64,000 bases of DNA from Alphaproteobacteria bacterium (GTDB lineage Bacteria > Pseudomonadota > Alphaproteobacteria > UBA828): contig CAXXVO010000009.1 in the NCBI GenBank assembly GCA_963422645.2, forward strand, positions 406,378 through 470,377, written 5' to 3'. Under the pieces are notes generated by a model. The model ran no database searches and was not told where the DNA came from. It saw nothing but the letters and a program-made list of their open reading frames with translations. A program made the position numbers and the translations under genes. Below, one piece after another: positions 54,171-64,000 of the stretch (position 1 is its first letter; every line of letters begins with the position of its first letter).

Positions 54171-55073
54171 ATGGCCCTTTCGCTCGCTCTCATCCTGATT
54201 GCCGGCATCAATTTCAGTCTGCTGATCCCGGTCAACAAGATCGCGGGCGACGCCGGCTTCCCGCATTTCGCCTATGTCTTCTGGTACGCGCTCGGCGCCG
54301 GGCTGATTCTGCTGGTGCCGGCAGTGATCCGCCGCGAGCTACCGCAGCTCACATGGCCGCACCTCAGGCTCTATTTTACCAGCGCAGCTTTGGGCTTCGC
54401 CTTTCCCTTTGCGCTGCTCGCCTTCATTGCGACCAAGCTTCCTTCCGGCGTTACCGTCCTCCTGATCACGCTCACGCCGCTCTTCACCTATTCCCTCGCG
54501 GTCCTCGCTCGGCTCGAGCGCTTCCAGCCGATCTGCGCGGTAGGGCTGCTTGCGGGAATCGGCGGGGTTCTCCTCATCGTCGTCCCCGGCGACAGCCTGC
54601 CCGCGCCGAGCATGGCCGTCTGGTTTCTCGTCGCGCTGCTCATCCCTTTCGGGTTCGGCGCGCTCAACGTGATCGTCGAGCGCTTTCGTCCACCAGAATC
54701 GTCCTCTCTGGGTCTCGCGATCGGCAACCTTTTCGCGGGCGCGCTCTTGCTGATTCCCTTTCTGCTGGCAACCGGCCAGCTCTACCTCTTCCCCGGACCG
54801 ACGCTGGACGGCGACCTCGCGCTCGGCGCCGCGGTCGTCATCAACGCGATCATGTGGCCGATGTTTTACGTCATCGTGCGCCGAGCCGGCGCCTCGCTCT
54901 TCTCCATCATGACCATCATCGGTGTGGTCGGCGGCATCGGCTGGGGCATTCTCTTCTTTGACGAAATCCATTCGGCCTACGTCTGGGGCGCGGCCGGGCT
55001 CATGCTCACCGCCTTCGTCATGATGGTAATCGGCTCGATTTTGTCTCGCCGGCGCTCCGCCCGCGCCGACTGA
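54171..55073 (+). CDS. DMT/EamA-family transporter
   Basis: About 10 hydrophobic segments arranged as two EamA-like halves. Confidence 0.82.
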   Translation: MALSLALILIAGINFSLLIPVNKIAGDAGFPHFAYVFWYALGAGLILLVPAVIRRELPQLTWPHLRLYFTSAALGFAFPFALLAFIATKLPSGVTVLLITLTPLFTYSLAVLARLERFQPICAVGLLAGIGGVLLIVVPGDSLPAPSMAVWFLVALLIPFGFGALNVIVERFRPPESSSLGLAIGNLFAGALLLIPFLLATGQLYLFPGPTLDGDLALGAAVVINAIMWPMFYVIVRRAGASLFSIMTIIGVVGGIGWGILFFDEIHSAYVWGAAGLMLTAFVMMVIGSILSRRRSARAD

Positions 55074-55179
55074 CCGCCCGTTTCTGGGTCTGGAGAAAGG
55101 CTCACGTCACGGCCGCCGCCGTGTAGCCATGGAGAACTCCTGAGACGACGTTCACTGACTCACGGGACGTCGATCCGGG

Positions 55180-55330
55180 TGTAGGGGGACGAAAGTCATT
55201 GCGAATCCGGAAGATGCCGGGAAGAAGGCGGAAGAGGGCGGACGGTCAAGGGGTTGGCGGCGTTTCCGGGGTCTGGCGGGCCGGACGAAAGTCTTTGCGA
55301 ATCCGGCCCGGAAAGGGCCGTGAATTGGCT
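55180..55330 (+). mobile_element. Putative Mu-like transposable element/prophage end
   Basis: TGT at 55180, preceded by CCGGG. 24-bp direct repeat GGACGAAAGTC(A/T)TTGCGAATCCGG at 55187-55210 and 55283-55306, plus an adjacent degenerate copy at about 55308-55328. Phage tail genes follow. Confidence 0.6.
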
Positions 55331-55413
55331 GGAAACGGTGATTTTCGGGGCGTTTCAGGGGTGCTGAAAGGCCTGTAAATCGGGGCGGTTCCGGGGGTGG
55401 GACCGACTGGCTG

Positions 55414-56802
55414 ATGCTGCGCCGGCCCGAAGGGGCGCTCGAGACCGTGCGCGCCCATGCCGGCCCGCCCGGCTCCGACGCGCGCGCGAACGGCGCCGAA
55501 ACCGCCCGCGTGTGGACGACACCCGCGCCGGAGGACGGAATCGGCGAGCCCGTCGACACGCTCTGGCGCCTCTATCCCGCAGGCGCCGGGCCGGCGAAGG
55601 TGAAGGTCGTGGGCGTCAGCCCCAAATCCGGGGACCGGGTGCGCCTCGAGGCCGTCGACGAGGTCGGCGCCTACTACGCCGCCGCCACCGCCGACCTCTC
55701 GGTCGACCTGCCGCAGATACGGAGGAATCTGCCGCGGGTCCTGCACGCCGCCGTCTCCGAGACCCTGATCCGCGTCGGCGCGGCCTTCCTCGTCGAGATC
55801 GCGCTCTCCCTCACCGTCGCCGGCGACTGGCGCGGCGCCGAGGTCCGCGCGTCGTGGGAGCGCCGGCCCATGCGCACCGTCGCCAGCCTCGACGGCGGCG
55901 ACACGGAGGCGCGCTGGACCAGCCCGCCCGAGGGCTGGATCGAGATCGTCGTCCTGCCCCGCGGCGGCGGACCGCCGCACCGCACCGCATATACGATCCG
56001 CGGCCTGCGCACGCCCCCCGGCGCCGTCACCGAGGCCCATGTCGAGCGCCTCGGCGACGGAACCCGGCGCTTCCGCTGGGCCGAGCCGCCCGACCCCGAC
56101 CTGCTCGGCGTCCGCATCAGATACGGACCCGCGCCGGCGTATCCCGCAGACCCGGGCACGCCGTGGGAAGAGCTGCGCGCGATCCACCGCGGATGGCTCA
56201 CCGCAAGCCCCTGGGAGGCCGTCGAGCCCGCCGCCGGCGACTGGCTCTTCTCCTTCCGCGCCCTCGACACCGGCGGGCGCTACGGCCCCGAGAGCCGCGT
56301 CACCGCGCGCCTCGGCGCCCAGCGCCGGGGCGAGAGCCTGTTCTGGGCCTGTCCCAGCGCCGAGGGATGGACCCGCGGCACGCTCGCCGGCGCGGCCCTC
56401 GACTTCTCCTGGGCCGATCCCGCCACCGGCGCCGCCGACTACGCCTGGCGCGAACTCGCCTCCTGGGACGCATGGACCGGATGGGCGCTCCCCGGCGCGG
56501 CCTGGGCGGCCGCGCCCACCGTCTACACCTCCATGCCGGCAGACCTCGGCCAGGACGGCGTCGTCTCGCTACTGACCTGGGAGTCCGATTCCCCTGTCCA
56601 GCCGACGGTGCGCGTGCGCGCCGCCGACTACCGCGACGACCTCGACGACGCCGCCTGGACCGGCTACGCCGCCGGCGACGCGATTACCGGTCGCGTGGTC
56701 CAGGTCGAGTGGACCTGGACCTGGGAACGGGGGCAGATTCCCACCGTCAAGTACCTCTGCTTCGGCCTCGCCCGCGCCCATATCGCCGCGCCGGCGAGCT
56801 GA
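55414..56802 (+). pseudogene. 5'-truncated phage tail tip / host-specificity (TipJ-like) protein, C-terminal part
   Basis: Starts mid-domain (DWLMLRRPEG); KVVGVSP...VRLEAVDE...YY and FN3-like modules (RRFRWAEPPDPDLLGVRIRY, FSFRALDTGGRYG); no RBS. Confidence 0.6.
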
Positions 56803-56823
56803 GTGGGCGCGAAAGGAAACCCA

Positions 56824-57627
56824 ATGACCGCATGGCCCACCCGGAAGATCGACACCACCCACCTCGACCAGGACAGCGATTCGCCCGCCCACGCCCGCGC
56901 CGCCATCAAGGCCATGGCCGACACCCTGAACGCCATGATGGACGCCGCCGGCGATCCGGGCGGCGTCGCCACCCTCGACGACGGCGGCGAGCACCCCTTC
57001 CGCCAGATGCGGGGCGAGGTGTTCACCGCGGCCGAACGCACGCGGCTGGCCAACCTCGGCGCCAGCCCCGACCCGCCGCGTCCCACGCCCACGCCGCCGC
57101 GTCCCACGCCCACGCCGCCGCGTCCCACGCCCACGCCGAGCGGGCGGAAGACCTTCACCACGCCCGGGACATTCTACTTTAAGGTGCCCTCGGGCGTGAC
57201 CCGCGTGCGCACGCAGTTGCAGGGCGGCAGCGGCGGCGACGGCAGCGACTATAGCCGCACCGTCAGCGGCAGGGGCGGCTCGAGGACCACCACCTGGCGT
57301 GGCGGCGAGGGCGGCGACGGCGGATTCATCTACTTCGATATCGCGGTCAGGGCGGACGGGACCTACCCCCTCATCGTCGGAGGCAACGGGGCGGACGGAG
57401 CGCGCGGCAGGGACGGCGCCGACGGCGGCGACACCACCTTCCTCTACGGCAGGGCGAGCGGCGGCAAGGGCGGCAAGAGAGCGCAAAACAGCCGCAACGG
57501 CGCAGACGGCGCAGACGGAACCTCCTACGCCCCCTTCAGCCCAGATGTGGGCTCCCGGAGCAAGCAGGTCCAGCTCGTCGTGCCCTCCCCGGTCTCCGCC
57601 GGCTATGTCGTCGTCGAGTGGGGCTGA
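56824..57627 (+). CDS. Phage tail-fibre-like protein: conserved N-anchor, Pro/Thr linker, Gly-rich C-domain (copy 1)
   Basis: AAGGAA RBS; GGVATLD anchor motif; (PPRPTPT)x3; TFTTPGTFYFKVPSGVTRVR...GG...GYVVVEW, typical of phage Gly-rich tail domains. Confidence 0.7.
   Translation: MTAWPTRKIDTTHLDQDSDSPAHARAAIKAMADTLNAMMDAAGDPGGVATLDDGGEHPFRQMRGEVFTAAERTRLANLGASPDPPRPTPTPPRPTPTPPRPTPTPSGRKTFTTPGTFYFKVPSGVTRVRTQLQGGSGGDGSDYSRTVSGRGGSRTTTWRGGEGGDGGFIYFDIAVRADGTYPLIVGGNGADGARGRDGADGGDTTFLYGRASGGKGGKRAQNSRNGADGADGTSYAPFSPDVGSRSKQVQLVVPSPVSAGYVVVEWG
57073..57135 (+). repeat. Perfect 21-bp x3 in-frame tandem repeat
   Basis: CCGCCGCGTCCCACGCCCACG three times, encoding PPRPTPT. Confidence 0.92.
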
Positions 57628-57632
57628 TCGCG

Positions 57633-57764
57633 ATGCGCCGCACCCTCGTCCCCGCAGGTGGCGGCATCGACAGCACCGCCCTCGCCCTCCTCGTCCTGCG
57701 CGAGACCGACGACGAGGTCGTCCTCTCCTGCAACCGCGCCCGGATCGCCGCGCCGGCGGGCTGA
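57633..57764 (+). pseudogene. 43-aa chimeric remnant: QueC-like PP-loop N-terminus fused to the tail-tip gene C-terminus
   Basis: MRRTLVPAGGGIDSTALALLVLRETDDEVVL resembles an SGGxDS PP-loop; it ends RARIAAPAG*, matching RAHIAAPAS* of the 55414-56802 ORF. Confidence 0.6.
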
Positions 57765-57785
57765 GCGATCGCGAAAGGAAGCCCC

Positions 57786-58321
57786 ATGACCGCATGGCCC
57801 ACCAGGAAGATCGACACCACCCACCTCGACCAGGGCAGCGATTCGCCCGCCCACGCCCGCGTCGCCATAAAGGCCATGGCCGACACAATCAACGCCATGA
57901 TCGACGCCTTCGGCGATCCGGGCGGCGTCGCCACCCTCGACGGCTCCGGCCTGCACCCCTTCCGCCAGATGCGGGGCGAGGTGTTCACCGCGGCCGAGCG
58001 CACGCGGCTGGCCAACCTCAGCGAGCGCACGGCGCCGCCGCGTCCCCGGCCCGATCCGACGCCCACGCCCCGGCCCACGCCGCGCGGCCGCAAGACCTTC
58101 ACCTCGCCCGGCTCCGGGAACTGGCGCGTGCCCGCGGGCGTGACCCGCGTGCGCGTGCAGTTGCGGGGCGGCGCCGGCGGCGACGGCGGCAGCTATACCC
58201 GCATCACCTCCGGCGGCAGGGGCCCCGAGAGGCGCACCACCTGGCGTGGCGGCGACGGTGGCGACGGCGGCTTCGTCTACTTCGAGATCGCGGTCTCGGC
58301 GGGCCGCTCCTACTTCTGGTC
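57786..58321 (+). pseudogene. Tail-fibre-like protein copy 2, truncated by IS21
   Basis: N-terminus near-identical to copy 1 (offset 962 bp), with a different linker and a diverged Gly-rich domain; cut at the IS21 left end. Confidence 0.75.
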
Positions 58322-58440
58322 TGTTGTTAAGCGTGGAAAAGTGACCCCCTATTGGGGGTGATCGGCGTCCAAAATTGACCCCCTTGGATTTGTGTCCATG
58401 AACACACCTCGTCGTTTGGACGGACGGGGTGGTGGGGGAG

Positions 58441-59955
58441 ATGCTGGTTGTGGAAACGATCGCGAAGATCCGTCGGGATCATCTGGTGAAGGGCGTTCCG
58501 ATCAAGAAGCTCGCCCGGGATTTGAGGGTTTCCAAGAACACGATACGCAAGGTGGTGCGGGGCGATGCGACCTCGCACAGCTACGAGCGCAAGATCCAGC
58601 CGATGCCGAAGCTTGGGCTGTGGGTGGAGGAGCTTGAGCGCCAGCTGAAGGCCAACGAGAAGAAGGCACGCAAGGATCGGCTGTCTCTTCTGCGGATTCA
58701 TGAAGACCTTGTGTCGCTGGGCTACAAGGGCGGCTATGACGCGGTTCGCCGCTATGCCAGGGCCTGGCGGCGCCGGTGGCGGCTGTTGTCGCCGGCGCAG
58801 GCCTATGTGCCGCTGATCTTCGATCCCGGCGAGGCCTACCAGTTCGACTGGAGCCACGAGTACGCGCGTCTGTCGGGCGCGACGACCAGGGTGAAGGCGG
58901 CGCACATGCGGCTGTGCCACAGCCGGATGTATCTGGTCCAGATCTTTCCCCGCGAGAGCCAGGAGATGGTCTTCGAGGCGCACGAGCGTGCCTTCCGCTT
59001 CTTCGGCGGGGTCTGCCGGCGGGGCATCTACGACAACATGAAGACGGCGGTGAGCACGATCTTCGTGGGCAAGAAGCGGGACTACAACCGCCGCTTCCAG
59101 GAGCTGTGCTCGCACCATCTGGTGGAGCCTGTGGCGTGCACGCCAGGGGCTGGCTGGGAGAAGGGGCAGGTCGAGAAGCAGGTGGGTGACCTTCGCGGCC
59201 GCCTGTTCGTGCCCATCCCGCGGGGCCGCTCCTACGCCGAGATCAACGAGTGGCTGATGGATCGGTGCATCGAGGACGCCAAGAAGCATCCGCATCCGAC
59301 AATCCCGGGCAAGACGGTGTGGCAGGTGTTCGAGGAGGAGCAGCCCTTCCTGATGGCGTATCGCGGCCCCTTCGACGGCTTCCATGCCAGCGAGGTGTCG
59401 GTCTCGAAGACCTGTCTGGTGCGCTTCGACAACAACCAGTACAGCGTCGCGGCCCGCGCCGTCGGCCGGCCGGTGGACGTGCGGGCCTATGCCGATCGGA
59501 TCGTCATCCGCCAGGACGGCGAGACCGTTGCCGAGCACCCCCGCAGCTTCGGGCGCGGCCGGTTCGTCTACGATCCGTGGCATTACGTGCCGATCCTGAC
59601 GCGGAAGCCCGGCGCGCTACGCAATGGCGCGCCCTTCAAGGACTGGCAGTTGCCCAACGCGCTCGGCCGCCTGCGAACCCGGCTCGCGGGCCACGACGAC
59701 GGCGACCGGCAGTTCGTCAAGGTGCTCGCGGCGGTGCTGGAGGACGGACTGGAGGCGGTTGAGGCGGCCTGTGCCGAGACGCTCGACTGCGGTGCCTGCA
59801 GCGCCGACGTGGTGCTCAACATCCTCGCCCGGCAGCGCCAGCCGGCACCGCCGGCAATCATCCCGACGCCCGAGGGCCTGCAGCTTCGCCACAAGCCGGT
59901 AGCCGACTGTCAGCGCTACGACAGCCTGAGGGAGGCCGGTCATGGAGCGTCATGA
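58441..59955 (+). CDS. istA: IS21 transposase IstA
   Basis: N-terminal [36 protein letters not shown]. Confidence 0.94.
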
Positions 59956-60670
59956 TGTGCTGGAGATGATGACCCAGCTGAAGCTCGCAGGTATGCGCGC
60001 CGCTTACGACGACATCCTTGCCGACGGGCTCAAGCGCCGCCATCCGGTGCAACAGATCATCGGTACGCTGCTGCAGGTCGAGATCGCCGACAAGAGGGCC
60101 CGCTCGATCAAGTACCAGATGGCCTCCGCCAAGCTGCCGACGGTCAAGGAGCTGGCCGACTTCGACTTCGCCGCCTCGCCGGTCAACGAGCCCCTGATCC
60201 AGGAGCTCGCCGGCGGCGGCTTCCTCGAGGGCAAACGCAACATCGTGCTGGTCGGCGGCACCGGTACCGGCAAGACCCATCTCGCCGTCGCCATCGCGCG
60301 GTCCTGCATCCGCAAGGGCGCGCGCGGCCGGTGCTACAACGTCGTCGACCTGGTCAACCTCCTCGAGGCCGAGCTTCGCGCCGGACGCCAGGGCCGCACT
60401 GCAGACCAGCTCGTCCGCCGCGACTTCGTCATCCTCGACGAGCTCGGCTACCTGCCCTTCGCCCAGGCCGGTGGGCAGCTGCTCTTCCATCTGATGAGCC
60501 GGCTCTACGAGCGCACCTCGATCGTCATCACCACAAACCTCGCCTTCGGCGAATGGCCATCCGTCTTCGGTGACCCCAAGATGACCACAGCGCTGCTCGA
60601 TCGCCTCACCCATCATTGCGAGATCATCGAGACCGGCAACGAGAGCTGGCGCTTCAAGAACCGCTCCTGA
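59942..60670 (+). CDS. istB: IS21 helper AAA+ ATPase IstB
   Basis: [30 protein letters not shown]. Confidence 0.95.
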
Positions 60671-60717
60671 CCCGCCGCCGGCCTCCCTTGCGGCCCGGTT
60701 GCCCCGGTGGGCCAACA

Positions 60718-60780
60718 GGGACCCCCCACGCGGCTTCGCTCCGCGTAGCGCAGGGCGCCACACGAAGCCGCGCGGGTCCC
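60718..60780. other. GC-rich inverted repeat/hairpin downstream of istB
   Basis: GGGACCC...CGCGGCTTCG / CGAAGCCGCG...GGGTCCC; no U-tract. Confidence 0.55.
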
Positions 60781-60831
60781 CCCTATTGGCTACCGGGACA
60801 ACCTCCGCCGTGCCACTCAGGGGGGTCAATT

Positions 60832-63189
60832 TCAGACTTCCTGACCTCTGCTGATTTTAGGTGACACGAGCCGCGCGGATTCCGAGGCCCCGTCGATGTC
60901 GTAGACTATGCGCAGACGGGTGCCGGGGAAGACCGTTTCGGTGGCGTTCAGGTCGCTCAGAACCGCATCGATCCAACGGTCGCAGGCGTCGTTTGCGAGG
61001 CCAAGAATGTGGACCCGCAGGAGGCCATTGCCAGGATCCGGCAGGATGTCGGCATCGGCGGTGAGCAGCGCTTGAAGCAGTTTCCGGGGATGGGGCTTGT
61101 GGCCCTGCGCCTGCATGACGGGAAGCATCATGCGGGTTTCGGCGCGGTAGGCGATCATCCGGATGACGTCGAGGAGGAGGCGCTCGCGCGCGGGCAAGGC
61201 ATCGAGCTGCTCGGCTTCGTCGAGGTCGCCGGCCCGGCAGTGCTTGGGCGTCTCCCTGCGGCTGGCCCTGACGATGTCGCGGACATCCTGGAGGTCCCTG
61301 ACTTCCCTCCTGAGTTCCGCCGTCGGCTGCTTCTTCCGGGCCGTGTCGGCGATGCGGTTGCGCAGGCGGCCAAGCTGGCGGTCGAGGCGATGGATTGCCT
61401 TGTCATAGGCCCGCCGCAGCGGGTTGACGACCATGGCGGCGGGATCGAGAGGCTCGAGCTCGTGGGTCGGCAGGGCGTCGAGATTGAACTCGTCACGCAT
61501 GTACTTGAAGAAGTTCTCCTGCGACCAGCGCGAGAACATGGCGCCCGCAACCTCAGCCATCGGCTTGTGCGGATCGGTGGTGATCAGCGGCACCTGACGG
61601 CCGTTGTCGAGCAGGCGGCGGATCTGGCGCACCCTGAAGCCGTTCGGCAACGTCACCGGCTTCTCAGCCAGCCGCATGGTGGCGCTGCCGTCCGCCGCCG
61701 GTCCGTGAATGGGAACGGTCATCGCGCCGAAGTCCTCGGCCGGCCAGTCCTCGCCCCTGAAGTTCTTGTGCCAGGTCAGGCAGGCGACGCCGCGCCTCGC
61801 CAGCCGGCGGAACAGATCCGGGCTCCAGCCCTCGCGGTCGAAGACCAGGGTGAGCGCCGGCTGGCCGGGATGCTCGGCGGTCAGGTCCGGCGCCCCGGCG
61901 CCAACGATCCCAAGCTCCTGCAGCGCCGGCACCACGTCGGCTTCGATGGCCGCGACCATCTTCGGGTCCAGCGGCTTGTGCAGACAGAGCAGCGGCTTGC
62001 CGCCCAGAGCGTTGATCCAGTAGCTAGCGCTCGCCGGCAGGCACAGCTTCTCGCGCGAGACGAAGTGCTTGGGCAAGCGCCCCTTGCGGCCGGAGTAGAC
62101 CTTGACGTGCCCGTCGATGGCCAGCGTCGCCCAGAGCTCCGGCTCGTCGGCCTGCCAGCGCCTGGCAAGGGCGAGCTGCCACGCCCGCACGCCGGCCTCG
62201 TCGTCGGCGATGAGAGCGATCTTGCGGCGCAGCGTCTTGACCTCGGGGCAGCGATCGAGGCCGAGAATGGCGCCCCATTCGCCCGGCGCCTGGTAGCGCA
62301 GGCTCTCGGGGTTGCGCACCCGCGCCAAGGTCATGAAGGCCAGGAAGAGCAGGATCGTAGGCAAGCCGTAATAGCCCTTCGGCAGCAATGGCAGGAGACC
62401 GGTCTCGGAGAGAAGACCTTCCTTCAGCAGGGCCGGCAGGGCGGCGAGCACGCCGCCGAAGCGGACACCGCGGGCGGCGGCGGCGAACTGCGGTTCGACC
62501 GGCCCCGCCTGTCCACAACTGGCCAGAACCCGAGCCGGAACATCGCAAGTCGCACGCCCCATCGGCGCCTGCCGGTCCCGCCGATCGCGCGCGCTGCGAT
62601 CCGTTTGCGGCTGCGCTTCCAGCCCCGGCGCCGTCTCCGGCCCCGGGGCACCGGTACTCTCTTCATCGACACGGCCTTCAGGAGCCGCACCCGCGTCAGG
62701 CGGCGCAGCCAGCGCTGAGCGTCCGGGCTCCCCATCCGCCTCCGTGTTGCCGATCAGTCCCTGACGGCGCCACTTGTTGACCGATGGCGCTGACACGCCG
62801 AGAACCCGGGCCGCCGCAGAGCCGCTCAGGCCCGATGCCAGCAACGCCGTCGCCTTCTCCGCCAACTCCGGAGTGAACACCGACGGCCCGCGACCGCGCC
62901 GGGGCTTCATGAACCCCGCTTCGCCCTCGGCCAGGTAGCGCCGTCGTGCGCGCTGCACCGTCGCGCGCGAGACAGCGAAAGCGTCAGCCAGTTCCTGCGG
63001 CGAGACCGCGCTGATCGCCGCGAGGCGGCCGATCCGCAAGAGCATGGCCGTGCGGTCATCGGCGGCGTGGCTGTCAAAGGGAATGAGGTTGGAAAAGTAG
63101 GTGAAGGTGTCGTCCGAGATCAGGACGGCGAAGCAGCTGTTGCCGATCGAGACCGCCTCTGGAGGGCACATTGGGAGGGTACTGGGCAT
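60832..63189 (-). CDS. 785-aa putative DDE transposase with tandem N-terminal HTHs
   Basis: Sole ORF between the TIRs; LAIDGH, VFDREG, FSRWSQENFFKY (resembles the IS4-superfamily YREK signature); HTH motifs VSRATVQR and VSAPSVNKW. Confidence 0.8.
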   Translation of the reverse strand: MPSTLPMCPPEAVSIGNSCFAVLISDDTFTYFSNLIPFDSHAADDRTAMLLRIGRLAAISAVSPQELADAFAVSRATVQRARRRYLAEGEAGFMKPRRGRGPSVFTPELAEKATALLASGLSGSAAARVLGVSAPSVNKWRRQGLIGNTEADGEPGRSALAAPPDAGAAPEGRVDEESTGAPGPETAPGLEAQPQTDRSARDRRDRQAPMGRATCDVPARVLASCGQAGPVEPQFAAAARGVRFGGVLAALPALLKEGLLSETGLLPLLPKGYYGLPTILLFLAFMTLARVRNPESLRYQAPGEWGAILGLDRCPEVKTLRRKIALIADDEAGVRAWQLALARRWQADEPELWATLAIDGHVKVYSGRKGRLPKHFVSREKLCLPASASYWINALGGKPLLCLHKPLDPKMVAAIEADVVPALQELGIVGAGAPDLTAEHPGQPALTLVFDREGWSPDLFRRLARRGVACLTWHKNFRGEDWPAEDFGAMTVPIHGPAADGSATMRLAEKPVTLPNGFRVRQIRRLLDNGRQVPLITTDPHKPMAEVAGAMFSRWSQENFFKYMRDEFNLDALPTHELEPLDPAAMVVNPLRRAYDKAIHRLDRQLGRLRNRIADTARKKQPTAELRREVRDLQDVRDIVRASRRETPKHCRAGDLDEAEQLDALPARERLLLDVIRMIAYRAETRMMLPVMQAQGHKPHPRKLLQALLTADADILPDPGNGLLRVHILGLANDACDRWIDAVLSDLNATETVFPGTRLRIVYDIDGASESARLVSPKISRGQEV

Positions 63190-63343
63190 GGTTGAGACCG
63201 TGCAATTGGTATCAAATTATACTATCAGACCTCGGGCGCGACACCCAGCGAAAAACCGCCTGAAACAACCGAAATGTATCAGAATTCAAGGAGTTCCCGG
63301 CACGCTGCCCAGAACAGCCAGCATCACGAGGTCAGGAAGTCTG
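60833..63343 (-). mobile_element. Unclassified 2.5-kb IS nested in the IS21 right end
   Basis: 16-bp perfect TIRs CAGACTTCCTGACCTC / GAGGTCAGGAAGTCTG; 5-bp TSD AATTT at 60828-60832 and 63344-63348. Confidence 0.88.
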
Positions 63344-63388
63344 AATTTTGCACGCCGATCGGGGGTCAGTATTGAAAGCCGATTGACA

Positions 63389-63804
63389 AGCATAAGGAGG
63401 GCTGCCTGCGCTTCCTCACCGACCTGCGCACGCCGTTCACGAACAACGAGGCGGAGCGTGACATCCGTATGAACAAAGTGCATGAGAAGATCTCAGGCGG
63501 CTTCCGCTCCCTGCAAGGCGCCTGCAACTTCGCCGGAATGCGCAGCGTCATCGTCACCGCTCGAAAGCAAGGCTGGAACATCCTGCAAATCCTGGCGCAC
63601 CCGGAACCGATGCAGCTGATCCCTATACTGCGCTCCTGAACTTCTCCGGCTCATCCTGAGTATCGCTGTCCTCTCATCTTGTTCGCGACGCGGCGTTCAT
63701 CATCCTCTCGCGCTCAAGAGAGTAGGCACCCCCGCGGCGTGGGGGCGTTGACGCAAAAGGAACTGGCTTGTTCCATAAGAGAGAGGGGGTACCTGGGCAG
63801 TTAC
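63389..63804 (+). mobile_element. IS66 remnant (3' end of tnpC plus one TIR)
   Basis: 63391-63639 encodes HKEGCLRFL...FTNNEAERDIRM...KISGGFRS...TARKQGWN; TIR ACCTGGGCAGTTAC at 63791-63804. Confidence 0.88.
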
Positions 63805-64000
63805 ACTAATTGAGCGTGCTTGCCCTGCACCTAATGTCTTCAACACTAAATGACTGGCTCCCGGCCTGGAATGACAAATTAATTCGGACAGGAATAGGGT
63901 TTCTGATATTGTCAGCATAGACCGCCCCGCAAACATGGGTCTCTGCCGCGTCCCGGCAACCTATCAGTAAGTCGTCCTGAAGGCGTACGGCAGCGCCGGG

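Follow-up and report, generated by a model that had tools for sequence, protein, structure and literature searches.

Within the 64-kb stretch of alphaproteobacterial DNA analysed here (the window, taken at its full length), positions 55180-58321 are very probably an immobile, internally deleted remnant of a Mu-type prophage that has been eroded by insertion sequences (IS). Its anatomy, its membership of a family of phage ends, the uniqueness of the junction between end and tail genes, the lack of a right end and the lack of a complete cognate transposase in the assembly were all observed directly. A sequence-only reading of the same DNA had put forward a mini-Mu-like element reduced to an end plus an array of receptor-binding cassettes, with plain decay as the null hypothesis; it is the null hypothesis that fits best. 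The mini-Mu label suits the origin of the element, an internally deleted Mu-type phage, but not its function, since the window copy has one end and is immobile.

The phage end and its junction with tail genes

The phage end occupies 55180-55399 on the + strand, starts with TGTAGGGG and belongs to one of two left-end families, L-A, with 97-100% identity to 22 other copies in the genome. Alignment of the 23 copies revealed flanks that are unrelated exactly to the left of TGTAGGGG, and 55180 is therefore the terminus. The 23-bp motif GACGAAAGTCWTTGCGAATCCGG is matched twice, at 55188-55210 and at 55284-55306; two or more matches arose in none of 100 shuffles, and a scan of the whole window that allowed up to 3 mismatches yielded no other end motif. 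From their position and repetition the two matches, both on the + strand and 96 bp apart from start to start, are putative transposase-binding sites (L1, the terminal site, and L2). Both are intact in the window copy and 99.5% identical to other copies. The five chromosomal bases abutting the terminus (CCGGG, 55175-55179) lie where one copy of a target duplication is expected; a partner CCGGG was not found beside any of the 29 right (R) ends in the genome.

At 55399/55400, position 220 of the left end is joined to the middle of a gene for a J-type central tail fibre (tail tip), with 1-3 G bases common to both sides. Across this point the L-A consensus reads ...GGTTCCGGGGGTG/CGGATTCGCC..., and the J-internal sequence at seven other loci reads ...GGCGCGGCG/GGGACCGACTGG.... 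The terminus is thus 220 bp from tail sequence, close to the 230 bp or so given by the sequence-only reading, which was also correct that transposase, repressor, head and tail-tube genes are all missing between the end and the tail genes in the window. It had further proposed a search for the same junction at other loci. BLAST of 54900-58400 and comparison of the 24 L-A copies found the junction once in the genome. The L-A copies diverge at positions 55, 187, 198-201 (three copies), 217, 223 (the window copy), 361, 530, 570, 744 and onwards to 4,158, and no deletion junction is common to any two of them.

The tail sequence that starts at the junction is the 3' third of the J gene (55400-56802, + strand). 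Its listed open reading frame (ORF), which begins at an internal ATG at 55414 and encodes 462 aa, matches PHROG 31 ('central tail fiber J') over model positions 804-1055 of 1565 (E 5.5e-7), while a fuller sibling copy matches the same model with E 3.6e-71. In the copy on contig C9 the frame is open for 1,067 codons to the same stop, of which the window retains the last ~467. By sequence, the fragment is homologous to the distal region of J; it is unable to build a tail tip.

Fibre gene 1 (56803-57627, + strand, 274 aa) is intact, with a conserved start MTAWPTRKIDTTHLDQ at 56824, a proline-rich linker and a C-terminal glycine-rich domain, and in the phage family it is sited between J and the right end. 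Its product matches Pfam Gly_rich_2 (PF21722; 29.4 bits against a gathering cut-off of 24.3) and minor-tail and tail-fibre PHROGs (E 5e-5 to 5e-4). A structural model built with 13 family members (mean pLDDT 60.8, pTM 0.50) reached moderate confidence only for residues ~100-235. The model matched 170 viral predicted structures at E <=0.001, with low TM-scores of 0.3-0.43, under the names glycine-rich domain, phage tail repeat, baseplate component, tail-fibre repeat and minor tail protein; a PDB sequence search with the same protein gave nothing meaningful. The PF21722 match and the tail context point to a glycine-rich phage tail or fibre protein, for which receptor binding is putative.

Fibre gene 2 (57786-58321, + strand) is a partial copy of fibre gene 1, truncated after ~179 codons by an IS21-family element that cuts it at 58321/58322; as listed, its ORF runs from 57786 to 58361 (191 aa). 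Between the two fibre genes lies a 44-aa ORF (57634-57765, + strand) that has no Pfam match and whose last ~30 bp are part of a repeat of the J 3' end. A self-match of 56772-57366 to 57734-58313, at 82.6% identity, reveals that the J 3' end and fibre gene 1 are repeated with fibre gene 2, and the tandem pair arose through duplication of the J 3' end plus a fibre gene. The pair combines a '...VVVEWG' type with an '...IVIEWG' type and occurs at 4 loci (one on C7, two on C8 and the window). The two-gene arrangement is accordingly a normal variant of the phage fibre module that was not built at the window locus, and the cassette array or donor library proposed earlier was not borne out. The genes themselves had been recognized correctly: profile searches support both the distal part of a tail-tip gene (PHROG 31) and the tandem fibre genes (Gly_rich_2 and tail PHROGs), with fold matches for fibre 1 at low TM.

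Across the genome, 16 ORFs carry the N-terminal motif of the fibre family, and all but fibre gene 2 of the window reach a common EWG C-terminus (15/16). The proteins are of two C-terminal types; their N-terminal ~85 residues are conserved and the glycine-rich part is more variable. The family is narrow, with 14 clusters in a large protein collection, mostly from the source genome, and no member in 43 other genomes of the taxonomic family.

The phage family in the genome and in relatives

At up to 3 mismatches, the end motif occurs 106 times in the 5.9-Mb genome, and its reversed control not at all. BLAST of 54900-58400 returned, besides the 22 further copies of 55180-55399, a second family at about 73-79% identity. 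A pattern scan located 73 termini, all beginning TGT. Of these, 24 are L-A ends (TGTAGGGG) and 20 are L-B ends (TGTAGACG), each with two sites, at a spacing of 96 bp in L-A and 116 bp in L-B; the other 29 are R ends (TGTAGCCG), in which the two sites directly adjoin. Facing pairs, defined as neighbouring termini no more than 30 kb apart, number 17, of which 15 are L+R. A perfect 5-bp direct repeat flanks 11 of the 17, all of them L+R, whereas the next 5 bp outward, used as a control, gave 0 of 17. Phage Mu has TGT ends, makes 5-bp duplications and carries spaced sites at one end and contiguous sites at the other. The TG...CA termini and 5-bp target duplication of a Mu-type transposable phage are thus present at family level, and the end-site spacing (96 or 116 bp at L, contiguous at R) fits the Mu layout, with transposase binding putative.

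The genome contains at least 44 decayed insertions of this phage family (the TGTAG family). About a dozen are two-ended deletion derivatives with intact target duplications. Short derivatives of this kind range from 0.9 to 14 kb; those of 0.9-5 kb have both ends and a 5-bp duplication and lack a transposase, and one two-ended derivative measures 893 bp (C22:13199-14091). A candidate complete element of 22.9 kb (C15:22446-45328) was rejected, as it has no target duplication and contains chromosomal transporter-like ORFs.

Past position 220, other L-A copies continue into genes for a MuF-like head-morphogenesis protein, portal, TerL and Mu gp27 (small terminase), all reading toward the end, and the longest copy additionally carries an SLT lysozyme, an HNH protein and GemA. 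Mu-like head genes (gp27, TerL, portal and MuF) therefore occur within the same L-A ends in siblings and are absent from the window copy. The L-A TerL shares 57-59% identity with its counterparts in Alteromonadaceae phage B23 and Rhodovulum phage vB_RhkS_P1; with that of B3 the figure is 34.5%. Gene order in the L-B family is as in the L-A copies. Both arms are present in one L-B/R pair (C8:85071-107742; 22.7 kb, duplication GACCA). Its L arm encodes MuF, portal, TerL, a GcrA-like protein and a weak MuB C-terminal fragment, all toward the L end; its middle, an S24 CI-like repressor; and its R arm, protease, scaffold, major head, adaptor and neck proteins, toward the R end. The element is interrupted by an IS21, an IS1595-type IS and a fragment of a 5.2-kb transposon. 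It also carries (L024:6271-7242 and 2052-2625) an ORF with an Acb2/Tad1 hairpin domain (E 7e-11), the name of which is associated with anti-defence sponges, and a split ThsB-like TIR gene beside a D12 adenine methyltransferase gene.

No complete phage or tail module of the family was found in the genome; capsid genes are confined to 2 loci, and genes for a tape measure or a tube were not found. Unrelated to the TGTAG family are a different J-like gene (44% identical), present in two copies (G000:C8:257478-260480 and C8:351033-354035), and a separate phage-like head/J region (C15:208972-215676).

The cognate transposase was traced from a 193-aa N-terminal stub, which lies beside a ParB-like gene at C16 and is cut by an IS21. 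With the stub as query, 16 longer public proteins were retrieved (561-740 aa, 47-83% identity), all 16 with rve and 15 with Mu-transpos_C, and its only PDB matches were weak ones to two chains of the same protein, the Mu transposase MuA (2ezk, E 0.034; 4fcy, E 0.12). These matches point to a cognate transposase of the rve + Mu-transpos_C type. When 4 of the 16 longer relatives were used to search the genome by tblastn, they matched residues only up to about 256; the matches lie at C16 and C10:193957-194587, with a weak one at C8. The genome has 114 rve matches, most of which are accounted for by IS21 (67 hits), other ISs and the 5.2-kb transposon. Neither canonical MuA family (PF02914, PF09299) has a match in the genome, although these blanks are weak evidence alone because the control genomes were also silent, and tblastn with MuA and MuB of the Rhodovulum phage gave nothing in the genome at E 1e-5. 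The window copy contains neither a MuA-type DDE transposase nor a MuB-type ATPase, and is therefore a remnant rather than a phage; the genome holds only N-terminal stubs and the weak MuB C-terminal fragment. The claim of a Mu-type transposition end nevertheless stands, given the TGT terminus, the asymmetric sites, the 5-bp duplications of the family and the rve + Mu-transpos_C transposase of its relatives.

The 5.2-kb transposon was considered as the mobilising element and rejected, because its ends (TGAGCG...CGCTCA) are its own, it is found inserted in either orientation and some copies lie outside phage elements. It encodes an HTH+rve transposase (536-aa frame), an AAA_22 ATPase, an AAA_25 protein and a DUF3991/Toprim protein, and BLAST depth indicates about 20-25 matching places at 99-100% identity (G000:C8:807700-812891; full copies also at C19:156072-161265 and C9:31291-36484).

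An intact relative was found in a congeneric genome, G024 (C1:174072-213279; 39,208 bp), with TGT termini, related site motifs and a 5-bp duplication, GCGAC. From its R-type end, one strand encodes fibre, baseplate, tape measure, tube, sheath, neck, adaptor, major head, scaffold and protease. The middle, after the protease, is taken up by genes for a methyltransferase and a CI-like repressor. The other strand, toward the L-type end, encodes a small early protein (a homologue of the product of the first leftward gene of the 22.7-kb C8 element), a ParB-like protein, the transposase, a MuB C-terminal match, a GcrA-like protein, GemA, HNH, TerL, portal and MuF. The transposase gene is central and full-length, and its product is homologous over its length to the rve + Mu-transpos_C proteins. 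This prophage has a contractile tail, in contrast to the J-type tail of the source-genome family, but the two-armed plan is common to both; the plan is unusual, yet has precedent. The spaced-site end of the G024 relative adjoins MuF, and its fibres are at the opposite end, about 39 kb away, as the sequence-only reading had assumed for Mu-type phages. Its view that a deletion joined the end to the host-range module is upheld by the same comparison, the two being adjacent at 55399/55400 in the window. The G024 prophage also carries a PAAR-like gene and could serve as a reference for the lineage.

Elsewhere the family is scarce. The transposase relative P0001 was matched at E <=1e-20 in 7 of 49 genomes of the order, the source genome included. 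None of the 43 other family genomes contains the end pattern, and neither does any viral contig; a search of the viral contigs with P0001 gave 3 pattern matches, none of them confirmed. The complete Mu-like prophage with matching ends that had been suggested as a helper was accordingly not found in the genome, in the 43 other family genomes or in the viral contigs. The end pattern is present in two other alphaproteobacterial genomes, as related orphan ends. G044 has 23 end-motif matches at up to 3 mismatches and no P0001-like transposase; inter-end stretches of 29.5 and 13.9 kb in this genome were rejected as elements because housekeeping genes lie between the ends, which are thus orphan ends. 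About 20 such orphan ends lie among housekeeping genes of G044:C1 (for example at 3031338, 3060869, 2718609 and 2732464). At G045:C1:107501-112100, in another alphaproteobacterial genome, a 4-kb related end pair encloses a gene for a fusion of MuF with an ADP-ribosyltransferase (891 aa; L044:1485-4160) and a Mu G-like gene, both reading toward the end. One public contig of 307,057 bp carries a transposase relative (P0004) and a fibre relative (P0023) together.

Insertion sequences, the empty site and the probable course of decay

The extent of the inserted DNA was established from a congeneric genome, G036, in which the sequences corresponding to the left of window position 55171 and to 63819-64000 (the last 182 bases of the window) are about 35 bp apart. 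This empty site identifies 55180 to about 63805 as inserted DNA, with the chromosome resuming at 63806-64000. Upstream of the remnant the genes are chromosomal: first a group with products resembling those of a lipid-A cluster and then the gene for an EamA-type transporter (54171-55073). The inserted block, 8.6 kb in all, comprises the 3.1-kb phage remnant, an IS21-family element (58322-60831, + strand), a second IS (60832-63345, - strand) and a fragment of a high-copy repeat (63388-63805, + strand). The IS21-family element contains istA (58429-59955, with rve and Mu-transpos_C_2) and istB (59942-60670), and the second IS contains a Transposase_29 (PF21804) gene at 60832-63189. The repeat fragment, with about 66-75 copies, looks like the C-terminal end of an IS66-type transposase, judged by reading of its ORF rather than by family search. 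It forms the right edge of the block, where it adjoins the chromosome, and there is no R end in the block.

These features are consistent with the following course of events, the order of which we infer. Insertion of a Mu-type phage downstream of the EamA-type transporter gene would have come first. Everything from left-end nucleotide 220 to about two thirds into J may then have been lost through an illegitimate internal deletion; the lost stretch would have included the head-packaging, capsid, repressor and tail genes and the early region together with its transposase gene. A later IS21 insertion would have cut the second fibre gene, and further IS activity would have removed the remaining element, including the right end, to leave the two putative transposase-binding sites, the J fragment, one intact fibre gene and one truncated fibre gene. 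Deletions that removed central lethal genes (early region, repressor, lysis) were probably favoured. In a phage with two divergent arms, such central deletions would leave stumps consisting either of an end plus F or of J and fibre genes plus an end, and stumps of both kinds abound in the genome.

The genome as a whole is heavily expanded in IS, with roughly 100 places matching the Transposase_29 IS in addition to the 67 IS21 hits. IS21 elements interrupt L-A ends at position 198/199 in three copies (G000:C9:570772, C19:136610 and C10:36829) and at position 187 in another (C22:23463), and are also found at 157-168 of two L-B ends; both orientations are seen across loci. The repeated position of IS21 within the phage left end suggests a target preference of IS21 for that sequence. 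A further element of 1.77 kb is present in about 47 copies at 99.7-100% identity and forms head-to-tail tandem runs of up to 5 units (G000:C11:48109-56955, C16:27170-32481, C10:44740-50068 and C8:169698-173238).

Alternative readings and known systems

Several observations weigh against reading the locus as a decayed prophage. A 1,359-nt segment of J is free of stops and indels in all 10 copies, which are 94.9-97.6% identical to the window copy; its dN/dS is 0.26-0.79 (median 0.43, mean dS 0.054, 45 pairs). Of the 16 fibre ORFs with the N-terminal motif, 15 are full-length. Such intactness of J and fibre sequences runs contrary to long neutral decay and leaves room for retention for function. 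The source assembly, 99.6% complete, is in 23 contigs with breaks in repeats, so that the absence of a helper is judged from these contigs and a complete copy could sit in a gap. Finally, the 55399/55400 junction is known from the assembly only. Among the pieces listed from four runs of short public contigs, none spans it by at least 31 letters on each side, and two extend a mere 28-29 letters beyond 55179/55180; short unitigs break at every repeat edge, and this silence is therefore uninformative, neither supporting nor refuting the junction.

The intactness of the tail genes would be expected if scattered J-end and fibre cassettes were kept as a reservoir of receptor-binding variants, available for recombination with infecting or resident phage relatives or with a tailocin-like particle and so able to change host range. 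The two C-terminal types of the fibres, their conserved N-terminus and their variable glycine-rich part are also as for exchangeable tips. MuF, at the other end of the phage, shows the same pattern, however. From a set of 11 copies, 8 are clean, the 3 gapped ones (a 1-nt indel; a 6-nt gap and a stop; a 3-nt gap) having been dropped, and the median omega is 0.51 (28 pairs). As the MuF end and the J/fibre end are alike, intactness is not special to host-range genes; the pattern fits recent insertion from an evolving master lineage, and in our reading the copies diverged while the phage lineage was active, before each of them inserted, and have since had too little time to decay. Moreover, the genome holds no complete phage or tail module of the family that could use the cassettes, and the fibre family is absent from all 43 other genomes of the taxonomic family. 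A reservoir at this locus is distinctly unlikely. A broader form of the idea, in which a two-armed lineage has undergone long-running, non-lethal amplification (at least 44 insertions) with its J/fibre cassettes kept by purifying selection as a host-range store on which related phages or a host-controlled particle would draw by recombination, we consider unlikely as well.

The proposal of a non-autonomous satellite, that is, a natural mini-Mu moved in trans by a helper transposase and possibly packaged, gains some credit from the intact left-end sites of the window copy and from the two-ended derivatives with intact 5-bp duplications elsewhere in the genome. But the window copy has a single end where two inverted ends are needed, no complete cognate transposase is present in the assembly, and the end motif is absent from the viral contig collection. 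Since no two L-A copies have a common deletion junction, there is also no sign that deleted derivatives transposed. Given its single end, its unique junction and the missing cognate transposase, the window copy is not a mobilisable mini-element. The reading is very unlikely and, for this copy, largely refuted. Of the three findings that the sequence-only reading had named as fatal to its own proposal, a unique junction and the lack of a helper with matching ends were both found, whereas the third, a lack of tail homology in the ORFs, was not.

That 55399/55400 is instead a chimeric join of two repeat families within a longer real locus is hardly credible: multi-copy repeats do lie on both sides and no listed public contig spans the point, but the two sides share 1-3 bases at most, which makes an overlap-based misjoin unlikely, the 470-kb contig resolves many other repeats, and the empty site gives a coherent 8.6-kb block.

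Taken alone, then, the window locus is an ordinary decayed prophage fragment for which no special mechanism is needed. Its genome context is more notable, with 73 termini, about a dozen two-ended derivatives and no working transposase, and provides natural material for studying how transposable phages decay, whether deletion of a central lethal region explains the stumps, and whether natural mini-Mu-like elements can be mobilised. Full-text literature searching, mostly at abstract level, surfaced no account of a genome with dozens of decayed Mu-type insertions, nor of natural one-ended remnants made of an end plus fibre genes.

The family resembles phage Mu in its TG termini, its 5-bp duplication, the different spacing at the two ends of its several subterminal, putatively transposase-binding sites (apart at one, contiguous at the other) and the DDE transposase of its relatives, which has an rve core and a Mu C-terminal domain. 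As in mini-Mu, ends are kept and the lethal middle is lost. However, mini-Mu and mini-D3112 are, in the passages concerned, engineered constructs (PMC8705779), whereas the window copy is a natural deletion with a single end, which makes a two-ended transpososome impossible; in addition, its tail module is of the siphovirus J type rather than the contractile type of Mu, and its parent lineage is two-armed. The 0.9-5 kb elements of the genome, with both ends, a 5-bp duplication and no transposase, resemble deletion derivatives of the kind of miniature inverted-repeat transposable elements (MITEs). They differ in having no common deletion junction, so that amplification of a deleted form is unsupported, and the window copy has moreover lost one end. 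Transposable prophages of Leptospira likewise occur in several copies per genome, some with 6-bp repeats (PMC8705779); they belong to other hosts and other sequence families, and the passages concerned make no mention of dozens of decayed copies per genome.

In gene content the family resembles Mu-like siphoviruses of marine Alphaproteobacteria and of Pseudomonas (B3). Common to both are a head set of gp27, TerL, portal and MuF, a J-type central tail fibre encoded close to one end, and a CI-like repressor, ParB-like protein and transposase among the early genes. TerL is 54-57% identical to those of Rhodovulum phage vB_RhkS_P1 and Thiobacimonas phage vB_ThpS-P1. These two phages are collinear, with all structural genes on one strand, whereas the source family and the G024 relative are two-armed, one arm running from the early genes to MuF and the other from the protease to the fibres. 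Confirmed in an intact relative, this two-armed layout widens the known variety of transposable-phage architectures.

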